From a virus (lineage: Duplodnaviria; Caudoviricetes), in the IMG/VR virus record IMGVR_UViG_3300035208_002098, positions 32,001 through 96,000 of that record: a DNA stretch of 64,000 bases; one strand, given 5' to 3'. The position numbers and the translations under genes were made by a program. The notes under the pieces were generated by a model, which was not told the origin of the DNA, ran no database searches, and saw only the letters and a program-made list of their open reading frames with translations. Of this stretch, positions 31,763 to 61,343 are shown piece by piece; the first letter of the stretch is position 1, and every line of letters starts with the position of its first letter.

Positions 31763-33389
31763 TTATAGTATAATTTTCTGATATATTATCATCTAGTTTT
31801 TTAATACAATCCAATAGCAAATATAGATATTCGAAACTAGAATAATCTAATTCACTTACATTTTCTAGTTGAAACTCAAGAGCTTCTACTACAATACCAT
31901 TACCAGTATCAATGGCAGTAATTAATTTGGTATTACGAAAATGTTGAGCCCAAATATCTGATTTACTTGATTTAAGAGTATACTTAGTTTGTTTAGTCTC
32001 ATTAATTTCTTTTACTATTAGTGTATACGCATGAACACCGGCTGTATCTCTTATATGATATTTACGTTTCATTTGATTCAATATTTAAAATTTTATAAAT
32101 TTCTTTAGTTACTTCTTGATATGTATTATATTTTTTAATTAATAAACCCTCAAATAAGGTATACCAAGGTGAAACATTTTCACCAGTTGGATTATCACCA
32201 TTCATTTCTGGTATTACCTCAAAATATGGGCTATCGTATAGTTTAACTATATTGATGGCCTTTTCTTCCATGTTATCCTCACAAATAAAAATACCCCACA
32301 TTAAATCAGCATAACAATTGGGGTATGGTTGATGGTTTGGCACAAATTTAATTGTTTTAACTAAATTTATTTCTTTAACTTTGAACATTGCGTGTTCACC
32401 AGATAAATCACCAAAAGCTTTTTTACTTCTCTCACACTTTAAAACTTCATATAAAACCTTCGTATCATCAGTCAATAAATGGTCCCCATTCATTATATCA
32501 AAAATATATGGGTTATCATCTATATGGCCGGTAATAAGTATACCGTCAGATGTCGTATGGATAGTGTAATTTTTTATACGGTAGGTTTGCTTCATAATGA
32601 ATTTATATCATCAATAATCGAATTTATTTGTTCAAAACTAATAACATCACCAGTAATTAATGTGTATTTTAAAGATATTTCAATCGTATCAAGCCCATCA
32701 ATATAACTATTATAAATTAGTTTATTGATATGAGTTTCAATCATAAATGCTGGTACAATAATTTCATTTCTTTTCATTTAACAAAGATAAATAAAATATC
32801 TGACAAATGCAACTAAATACTATCTAAATATTTACAAATAGCATTATAAATTACATCAATTTGAGATTCATTCTCACCACTTTTATAAAATAAATTTCGA
32901 ACTTCATTGTCTTTATAGTACCATATCTCACATATAAACCCAAACCGAGTCATATTTAAGCTAAAACCAGATATTTCTTTACTGGAAATAAAATTTAACA
33001 CTTCCATGCACCAAATTAAGTTTTTGTGGAACTCTAATTCCCGGCAAGTTAATTGCCCGTTAAATAATTCTCTAAATGGATTTTCTTTATCATGGAATAC
33101 CCAACGATATGAATTTATCGTTTTACATGGTTCAATTACAGCACCAACAAATTTGGCTATCCTTTCATTATATTTTTTCTTATCTATTTTCATTTTCACA
33201 TATTTTTGTTATTAAAAAATCACGGTACTTTTTATTGTTAGTACCTAAGTAATACCAAAGTTTTTGTCCGTTATCTAATAATTCACAATTAAGACGGCAC
33301 AAAACTTTAATTTTTTTCTTAAGTTTTCTAGGTATTTTAGAATTACTAGGGAAAAATGGTGATATTATTTTTGGTGCTATAAAACTCAT
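31749..33389 (-). other. Hypothetical ORFs (31749-32081, 32062-32595, 32592-32777, 32813-33199, 33180-33389)
   Basis: Overlapping co-oriented ORFs. Confidence 0.55.
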
Positions 33390-59156: not shown

Positions 59157-59627
59157 TTAAGCTTTTGGCTTAATGTCCTTAAGAATCTCACCAATTTCAA
59201 CCTTAACTTTCGTTTCAGTTTCTTTTGTATAATTCACTTGAACGTAACTTATAACTTCAGACATCTTACTCTTCATCAATTTAAAGTTTGGTATAGATAT
59301 TTTAGTTCTTTCATATCCCGGAAACATATATGATTTCCATTCATGTACAGCTACTTTAGCAGCTGAAGTATACATACCCTTATCAACTAAATGTTTTACC
59401 ATTTGACTTAATTTAGTTAAATCATATATACTCACATTACATTTTTCACCATTAAATGTTAATTTAATTGCATGTGGTACACCACCAATTTTAACTGTTA
59501 ATACTTTATAAAAATAGTCAGTGTCTTTATTAATAAATAGATGTTGACTTGTTTTTTCGAAATATTTCATTATTTCTTGTCCAATTACTTGTGACTTGTT
59601 TTCTGTTGTTTTTACTATTGTTTCCAT
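59157..59627 (-). CDS. Hypothetical protein downstream of the MK*IYRPP leader
   Basis: Likely start METIVK after an A-rich leader. Confidence 0.7.
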   Translation of the reverse strand: METIVKTTENKSQVIGQEIMKYFEKTSQHLFINKDTDYFYKVLTVKIGGVPHAIKLTFNGEKCNVSIYDLTKLSQMVKHLVDKGMYTSAAKVAVHEWKSYMFPGYERTKISIPNFKLMKSKMSEVISYVQVNYTKETETKVKVEIGEILKDIKPKA

Positions 59628-59744
59628 AATTTTTTTATATTTTAAGTTTTTTATTATTAATTGTGCTTTATATAGCACTTTTTATTGTTTTTATTATTTA
59701 TTTTTTACCATTTAATAGTGTAATTTATTACACATTCTAATGTT

Positions 59745-59771
59745 TTATGGTGGACGATATATCTATTTCAT
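59745..59771 (-). CDS. Amber-containing mini-ORF / leader peptide M-K-(UAG)-I-Y-R-P-P
   Basis: ATG AAA TAG ATA TAT CGT CCA CCA TAA, 10 nt after the Pth2 stop. Confidence 0.55.
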
Positions 59772-59781
59772 ATTGGTAAAA

Positions 59782-60135
59782 TTAAAATAATTGTGATTCT
59801 TCTCTTAAAGCTAATGGTAAATTAGATAATAACTTCCTAGATGCTTCCGATGGTTCGAATGAAACAGCTGTAATTTCATTATCAATATCAGGTTCTCTGA
59901 AGATTGAAATGTTAATATTTCTTAAATTTGCTTTGAAAATCAAATCCTCTAAGTGAGATAAATCTCGTGCAGATAAATGTACTAAGTACTTGGATTTGTC
60001 ATGCCATTCTTTGGCGATTTCTGGATGTTCATGTTGGAATTGGATGCCAGCATGAGATAATTGTGGTGATTGATAGTTATATGGTAATGAACCATTAACA
60101 ACCACGTACAGCTTTTTAATCTATGTTTCTTTCAT
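59782..60135 (-). CDS. Pth2-like peptidyl-tRNA hydrolase with in-frame amber codon at position 5 (MKET*IKKLYVVV...)
   Basis: KLYVVV..L...Q..QLSHA, EW...YLV.L, FREPDIDNEITA, LL..LPL. TAG at 60121-60123 is in frame with ATG 60135. Confidence 0.78.
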
Positions 60136-61140
60136 AATGTTTAATTTATTAATTATATTATCTTTATATGTTATTCTTATTAATTTAATACCGTTATCAT
60201 TACAGTAATCAGTCTTTATTTTATCTTTTTTAACCCTATCTTTTAAACCTTCTTCACCACCCCATTCATTAACTACCTCAAAATGTTGTCTACCATCATA
60301 TTCAATACATGTATTTAAATCCGGTAAATAAAAATCAAATGGTAGTACTCTTAAATCAACGCAATTTTCAAATATTTTATATTTTATGAAGTTAATATCA
60401 TTAGATATTAAAAATTTTTTTATTTGTTTTTCACCCTTTGATTCATTACATATTTGGCAGCCAGAACCTCTAAGATGGTAATCAGGTTTCTGTTCAAATT
60501 CACCATGTATTGGACAAATTATCTTAACAGGTATTCTCTTATTTATATAATTAACCAATGAATAATCATATTTATAACCATGGACTAATTCAGCTTTATC
60601 TATAAATGTTTTATTATTATGTTTACACCCACTACAATAAGGGCACCCCGAACCATTTATATGATGAGATGGACTTTGTTCAAATTCACCATGGATTGGA
60701 CATATAATAATAACTTTTTTATGAGTTGTTTGATAGTAAACTTTAGAATAGTCGTATTTAAATTTATGAATATTTTGACTATCAACTATAAATTTAAATA
60801 ATGACTTACGTAAAATATCATTTCTTATTATATTACCACATTTTGGGCAATTACAACCTTTTAAATGATTATTAGGTATCTGTTCAAATTCACCATGAAT
60901 AGGACAAATTATTTTTACCTTAGTACACCAATCGATGTAAGATACTTTAGAATAATCGTATTTGTTATTATGAATTAAATTAGCTTTTTCAATAAAATCG
61001 CACATATTAGAAAATTTATTTATATTAAATAAATATCTAGAATTTTTATAAAACACTGTTTGTACAGCTTCATATTGTTGACCTAAATCTTTTCGGTCTA
61101 CAACGTACAATTTTGATTCTTTTGTAATCTAGTGTTTCAT
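60121..61140 (-). CDS. Free-standing endonuclease (3x DUF723-like zinc repeats plus Vsr/PD-(D/E)XK domain) with Pth2-like N-terminus and amber codon at position 4
   Basis: MKH*ITKESKLYVVDRKDLGQQYEAVQ; 3x KYDYS..Y...KIICPIHGEFEQ.P..H..G..C..C; PFDFYLP....IEYDGRQHF. Confidence 0.8.
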
Positions 61141-61270
61141 AACTTTTCTTTTTTAGTTTATATTAATAAATATGTTACAATTTTAAAAAATAATCCTCAA
61201 CTGCGTTTAACCTCTACAGCATAGTTTTGTATAACGTGGTATTATTTCAAATACCTTGTGAATTATTTCG

Positions 61271-61343
61271 TGTCCCTAATCGGGTTCGAACCGATGCACA
61301 CAGGCTTTTAGAGGGCCCGGCTCTGCCACTGAGCTATAAGGAC
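61271..61343 (-). tRNA. Amber suppressor tRNA (anticodon CUA)
   Basis: GTCCTTA TA GCTC AGTGGCA GAGC C GGGCC CTCTAAA AGCCT GTGTGC ATCGG TTCGAAC CCGAT TAGGGAC A; anticodon at 61309-61311. Confidence 0.85.

Follow-up and report, generated by a model that had tools for sequence, protein, structure and literature searches.

A 9-codon mini-ORF beside the peptidyl-tRNA hydrolase (Pth2) gene of a giant phage is probably a read-through-gated regulatory leader, in which an Arg-Pro-Pro end of the type associated with ribosome stalling is reached only if an internal UAG stop is read through. About 45 related phage loci keep this design, probably as a sensor of the phage's own stop-reading tRNA. The element was found in a 64,000-nt window (positions 32,001 to 96,000 of IMGVR_UViG_3300035208_002098), part of a single 248-kb contig of 27.7% G+C with nearly all genes on the minus strand. 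On that strand the window reads ATG (59771-59769) AAA TAG (59765-59763) ATA TAT CGT (59756-59754) CCA (59753-59751) CCA (59750-59748) TAA (59747-59745). The frame lies 10 nt after the stop of the Pth2-like gene (59784-59782) and 117 nt before the ATG (59627) of a 156-aa ORF (59157-59627, minus strand), the presumed regulated gene, and the unit ends at an intrinsic terminator (59149-59120, minus strand). A tRNA with anticodon CUA, the presumed input of the gate, is found at 61270-61343 on the same strand. The initial annotation had proposed an amber-controlled, arrest-like leader peptide of the R-x-P-P/Pro-Pro-stop class, and this central reading is supported at the family level. One correction is needed, however: the two hairpins it named, GTGTAAT/ATTACAC (59733-59718) and GTGCT/AGCAC (59678-59663), are present and predicted in the fold, but they lie downstream of the mini-ORF on the coding strand and neither is a terminator there, with no U-tract following the second.

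The mini-ORF is the third early TAG in a row behind the tRNA(CUA). The Pth2-like gene (59782-60135, minus strand) carries its own gate, ATG AAA GAA ACA TAG (60135-60121) running in frame into IKKLYVVV; its Pfam PTH2 match starts two residues after the TAG, and a profile of this protein and three relatives hits archaeal Pth2 structures (1rzw, E 7.6e-8). A further start, ATG AAA CAC TAG (61140-61129), is followed by a Pth2 N-terminal fragment (KLYVVDRKDLGQQYEAVQT) fused to a Vsr-like homing endonuclease ORF (60121-61140, minus strand). This ORF ends exactly on the Pth2 gate codon, so one frame with two TAGs runs 61140-59782; in two related loci, L043 and L111, an upstream ORF also ends in frame on the gate. 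The genome uses the standard code: reading TAG as sense adds no more ORF coverage than the TGA control, and in a crude gene set 30 of 291 ORFs end in TAG. The TAGs considered here are thus local gates and not a code change.

To examine conservation, we searched IMG/VR with the Pth2 protein, which found 10 loci, and metagenome contigs with a four-sequence alignment, which found 80. In 65 of 69 distinct loci an in-frame TAG (TAA in 4) sits just upstream of the Pth2 domain, after ATG plus 0-11 codons (2-8 codons after the ATG in the window and the 65 TAG loci), whereas the Pth2 genes themselves end in TAA 48, TGA 17 and TAG 3; the gene appears to need amber suppression. An exact search of IMG/VR for the Pth2 leader 18-mer found, apart from the known relatives, only out-of-frame chance matches in an unrelated conserved gene. 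We then scanned the same loci for a loose motif (ATG, up to 7 codons, TAG, up to 6 codons, Arg, 0-1 codon, Pro, up to 2 codons, stop). One such frame per locus was found on the Pth2 strand in 46 of 69 loci, against 2 loci on the opposite strand, 1 with a TAA gate, 0 with a TGA gate and 0-3 in each of 20 shuffles. In the 248-kb genome the TAG-gated motif matches at four places, and this is the only one ending Arg-Pro-Pro-stop. The pattern is M, 1-5 codons, TAG, 1-5 codons, Arg-x-Pro, then Pro, Thr or stop, giving full peptides of 8-14 residues. Examples are MKFT(TAG)IEIRGPT, MM(TAG)IIRGPT, MKET(TAG)IYIRPP, MKDT(TAG)IHPRPP, MTH(TAG)IRSP, MK(TAG)VRRIRAP and MKKT(TAG)IKYRGP, the window having MK(TAG)IYRPP.

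Several features indicate that the peptide itself is under selection. Arg, although invariant by construction of the motif, is coded by AGA 31, CGT 6, CGA 4, CGG 2 and CGC 1; Pro uses all four codons and Gly three. ATG, TAG, Arg-x-Pro and the stop are always in one frame, and the part behind the TAG must be translated although it has no start codon of its own. The final stop is TAA or TGA, except in three members ending in TAG that have a full RxPP, where arrest would precede the stop. One relative, L004 (with L011 and L075; a 675-kb viral contig), uses TAA as the gate in both the Pth2 leader and the mini-ORF and ends the mini-ORF with TAG (MKDT-TAA-IFTRGSPSP-TAG), which suggests an ochre suppressor; no tRNA was found within the 12.7 kb examined. 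The base after the gate is a purine in all 69 Pth2 gates and in 43 of 44 leaders; by contrast, 16 of 30 genuine TAG stops of this genome are followed by a pyrimidine. A following purine is expected to favour amber suppression in E. coli. Other explanations were not borne out. The 16-mer around CGTCCACC has no other copy beyond chance in the window; ARAGORN finds no tRNA remnant there, the CCACCA being explained by the Pro-Pro codons; and although the leaders resemble each other up to the TAG, the Arg-x-Pro tail is unrelated to the Pth2 N-terminus, arguing against a duplicated Pth2 5' end.

The spectrum of residues in the phage leaders is the one predicted by experiments on arrest peptides. In R-x-P, x is P 14, G 13, A 6, S 6, H 2, Y 2 and D 1, the next position is stop 29, Pro 8 and Thr 7, and the residue before Arg is Ile in 21. 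In ApdA and ApdP the Arg of RAPP cannot be replaced, Ala-to-Gly is fully permissive or enhances arrest, Pro, Ser and Asp are partly permissive, and RGPP gives the strongest arrest (PMC12992588). In the A site Pro is best, followed by Cys, Thr, Asn and Ser (PMC7897499). The Arg side chain inserts into a pocket at the peptidyl-transferase centre, and a minimal RxPP is reported as sufficient for arrest (PMC10951233). As in the RAPP-like peptides (ApdA, ApdP, ApcA, SecM and the RQH family; PMC7897499, PMC10987492, PMC10951233, PMC12992588), an invariant Arg lies two residues before a P-site Pro at the C-terminal end of a small ORF upstream of a gene whose expression it would control. Yet the likeness to SecM, ApdA and ApdP is one of mechanism and not of family membership. 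In 29 of 44 members, including this one, the A site holds a stop codon, whereas ApdA and ApdP strictly need Pro there; the nascent chain is only 8 residues in the window, with no signal or membrane segment and no force-based release; an internal stop codon must be read through; and the neighbours are Pth2, tRNA(CUA) and unknown small proteins rather than Sec or YidC genes. Arrest would then occur at termination, as in TnaC, which ends Arg-Pro-stop with peptidyl-tRNA(Pro) in the P site (refs 111-113 in PMC6412442). This also fits the known poor termination after C-terminal Pro (Hayes et al. 2002, cited in PMC6412442). TnaC, on the other hand, senses free tryptophan through conserved upstream residues and acts through Rho, while 8 residues leave no room for a sensing region and the spacer has about 8 C in 117 nt.

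What might such a stall control? Each leader is followed after 45-180 nt by a gene of 100-170 aa that begins MET[IT] (ATG GAA AC(A/T)). These genes fall into three families with no detectable relation to each other (profile-profile probabilities below 1%); the cassette, and not the gene, is therefore the conserved unit, and the 5' end of the coding sequence seems to belong to it. The 25 nt at the leader's end (last two codons, stop and 16 nt) are complementary to -16..+9 of that gene's start, and 27 of 35 loci beat shuffles at p<0.05. RNAalifold on 15 cassettes gave no consensus structure, because the helix register shifts between loci, and we used cognate against non-cognate duplex energies instead. 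Cognate duplexes average -11.6 kcal/mol and non-cognate -6.4, the cognate partner ranks first in 15 and in the top three in 25 of 34 loci, and none of 20,000 partner permutations does as well; a control segment upstream of the leader gives -1.9. In loci with a Shine-Dalgarno sequence the Pro-Pro codons CCUCCU pair with GGAGG. With a ribosome footprint imposed, the modelled unpaired probability of the start region is 0.37 free, 0.37 with a ribosome at the gate and 0.69 with a ribosome stalled on the last sense codon (Wilcoxon p about 3e-9). This would be the logic of the SecM-secA and MifM-yidC type of unmasking (summarised in PMC10987492), with stop-codon read-through rather than secretion or insertion activity as the input, and with a helix partner that begins in the last codons and the stop of the leader itself. 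In the window this pairing is weak. Only CCAUAA (59750-59745, last Pro codon plus stop) is predicted to pair with UUAUGG (59629-59624) of the downstream start, against 9-16 bp equivalents in relatives. The helix is in the MFE and centroid of a 170-nt fold (z -2.3), but its probability is 0.89, 0.52 or 0.02, falling as flanks are added, and the modelled start region does not open on stalling (0.73 to 0.73). The closest relative, L048, has a 9-bp version at the same place. The first spacer hairpin begins about where the leading edge of a ribosome stalled on the last Pro codon would lie, as inferred from a footprint of about 15 nt 3' of the P site. Short palindromes recur in the spacers across loci (L052, L064, L095, L106, L118 and L050; the window at 59718-59733; L083 and L088), GGACA-N3-4-TGTCC in one group and GTGTAAT/ATTACAC in another that includes the window, and could be structural hairpins or protein-binding sites.

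A tRNA(CUA) lies in the same locus in most contigs long enough to show it. It sits directly after the regulated gene in loci of the second and third downstream families (B and C), and upstream of Pth2 in those of the first (A, motif KTS[QK]HLF), such as the window. The CUA tRNAs of the relatives are diverse; that of the window is at most 70% identical to any other tRNA of the phage, and its anticodon stem has a C-A mismatch. The phage carries 48 tRNA genes and a tmRNA on the minus strand (93270-162870 of the contig, window 61270 onward and beyond); two relatives, L005 and L010, also pair Pth2 with a tmRNA, and in another, L096, a tRNA with anticodon UUA (835-908) sits next to TAG-gated Pth2 and leader. 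Cultured Bixzunavirus mycobacteriophages also have Pth2 next to a tRNA(CUA), with ATG TAG GTG at the Pth2 start, as in Mycobacterium phage Alice (NC_028986.1 91690-92412), where an annotated suppressor tRNA(cta) lies 250 nt downstream and the intervening GC-rich stretch has no annotation; there the GTG, with its well-spaced GAAGG, may be the real start. As for the regulated gene, the 156-aa protein (beginning METIVK) has no Pfam or PHROG match, and a viral-contig search with it alone found no relative. Its AF2 model (pLDDT 78, pTM 0.73) has no PDB match by Foldseek at E<=0.001 or by VIA-align (best Z 4.3). Family B is a small helical protein, also without a match.

Taken together, we suggest, with a probability of roughly 0.7 and by comparison rather than by experiment, the following scheme. 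Ribosomes start at ATG 59771; if UAG (codon 3) is read by release factor, they leave after two codons and nothing follows. If the phage tRNA(CUA), encoded 1.5 kb upstream on the same strand, reads UAG, they would continue through Ile-Tyr-Arg-Pro-Pro and stall with peptidyl-tRNA(Pro) in the P site and UAA in the A site, using the Arg-x-Pro mechanism of RAPP-type arrest peptides together with the poor termination seen after C-terminal Pro-Pro. The stalled ribosome would cover the last codons and about 12-15 nt beyond, the stretch that in relatives base-pairs with the start region of the next gene, so that stalling would free that start and switch on translation. The element would thus convert working amber suppression into expression of the downstream small protein, Pth2 receiving the same signal directly through its own in-frame UAG. 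Read-through by this tRNA, stalling and the direction of regulation (ON) are inferred, and in the window, with a masking helix of only 6 bp, the output may be weak.

Other readings are less likely. The initial annotation also raised the possibility that the unsuppressed 2-codon minigene (ATG AAA TAG) yields a Pth substrate, or that the element reports on Pth activity. The position of the leader, 10 nt after Pth2 in the window and 7-20 nt after it in about 20 relatives, the co-occurrence of the two, and the probable tendency of very short nascent chains to drop off and of minigenes such as lambda bar to be toxic when Pth is limiting are in line with this view. Yet these ideas are not needed to explain the data, and a minigene role does not account for the conserved Arg-x-Pro tail behind the TAG, which has no counterpart in bar minigenes, the fixed frame or the co-varying pairing with the downstream start; moreover, in many loci the leader lies 200-1800 nt from Pth2, or upstream of it, but always directly before a MET-gene. 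Equally unlikely is a tna-like, transcriptional version, in which the stalled ribosome blocks Rho loading or a terminator. TnaC provides a precedent, and in B- and C-type loci the tRNA(CUA) follows the regulated gene and would be transcribed with it. However, no promoter-like or terminator-like site is found on the minus strand of the window's spacer (59628-59744), which also sets the element apart from trpL- and hisL-type attenuators, the C-poor spacer makes a poor rut site, and the co-varying partner of the leader end is the start region itself.

Least likely is an RNA-only element with an incidental reading frame. Although CCUCCU pairs with GGAGG in some loci and CCAUAA is the pairing segment in the window, Arg switches between AGA and CGN while remaining Arg, ATG, TAG and the terminal stop keep one frame in 44 members, and the opposite-strand and other-gate controls are near zero. 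It is also possible, though unlikely, that the family is functional while the window's copy is a decaying relic: it has the weakest helix of its group (6 bp, p about 0.05), no modelled opening of the start region, the shortest peptide and a long spacer. Nonetheless, its ATG, TAG-purine context, Tyr-Arg-Pro-Pro and TAA are intact and typical of the family, and the 6-bp helix still includes the start codon.

Full-text searches found no description of a natural stop-gated arrest leader or of amber-gated phage Pth2. Iyer et al. note Pth2 in jumbo phages without this feature (PMC7824862). Borges et al. (10.1101/2021.08.26.457843) describe recoding and code-change modules, in which a phage suppressor tRNA times gene expression through in-frame stops, but no leader sensor; the present genome keeps the standard code, and its few gated TAGs sit at codon 3-5 of three adjacent starts. 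Synthetic switches with a TAG in the leader are known for unnatural amino acids (PMC6412442), but these are engineered in the trp and tna leaders and act on transcription, whereas the phage element is natural, uses its own arrest motif and appears to act on translation. It is slightly more likely than not that standard-code phages keep an otherwise "orphan" amber suppressor tRNA as the signal of a small translational circuit, one UAG directly gating Pth2 and a second gating an arrest leader, translated just behind Pth2, that unmasks a further gene. This arrangement could give a steep, timed switch that responds only when read-through is really working, a natural read-through sensor and a plausible stepping stone towards full stop-codon recoding. 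The element would give a concrete job to suppressor tRNAs found in phages that do not recode their genes, would add stop-codon read-through to the short list of signals sensed by arrest peptides, and would extend RxP-type arrest to 8-14-residue peptides and to the termination step. It offers a compact natural part for genetic-code-expansion circuits, and flags three unknown small protein families, and the phage Pth2, as likely players in a phage-controlled change of host translation.
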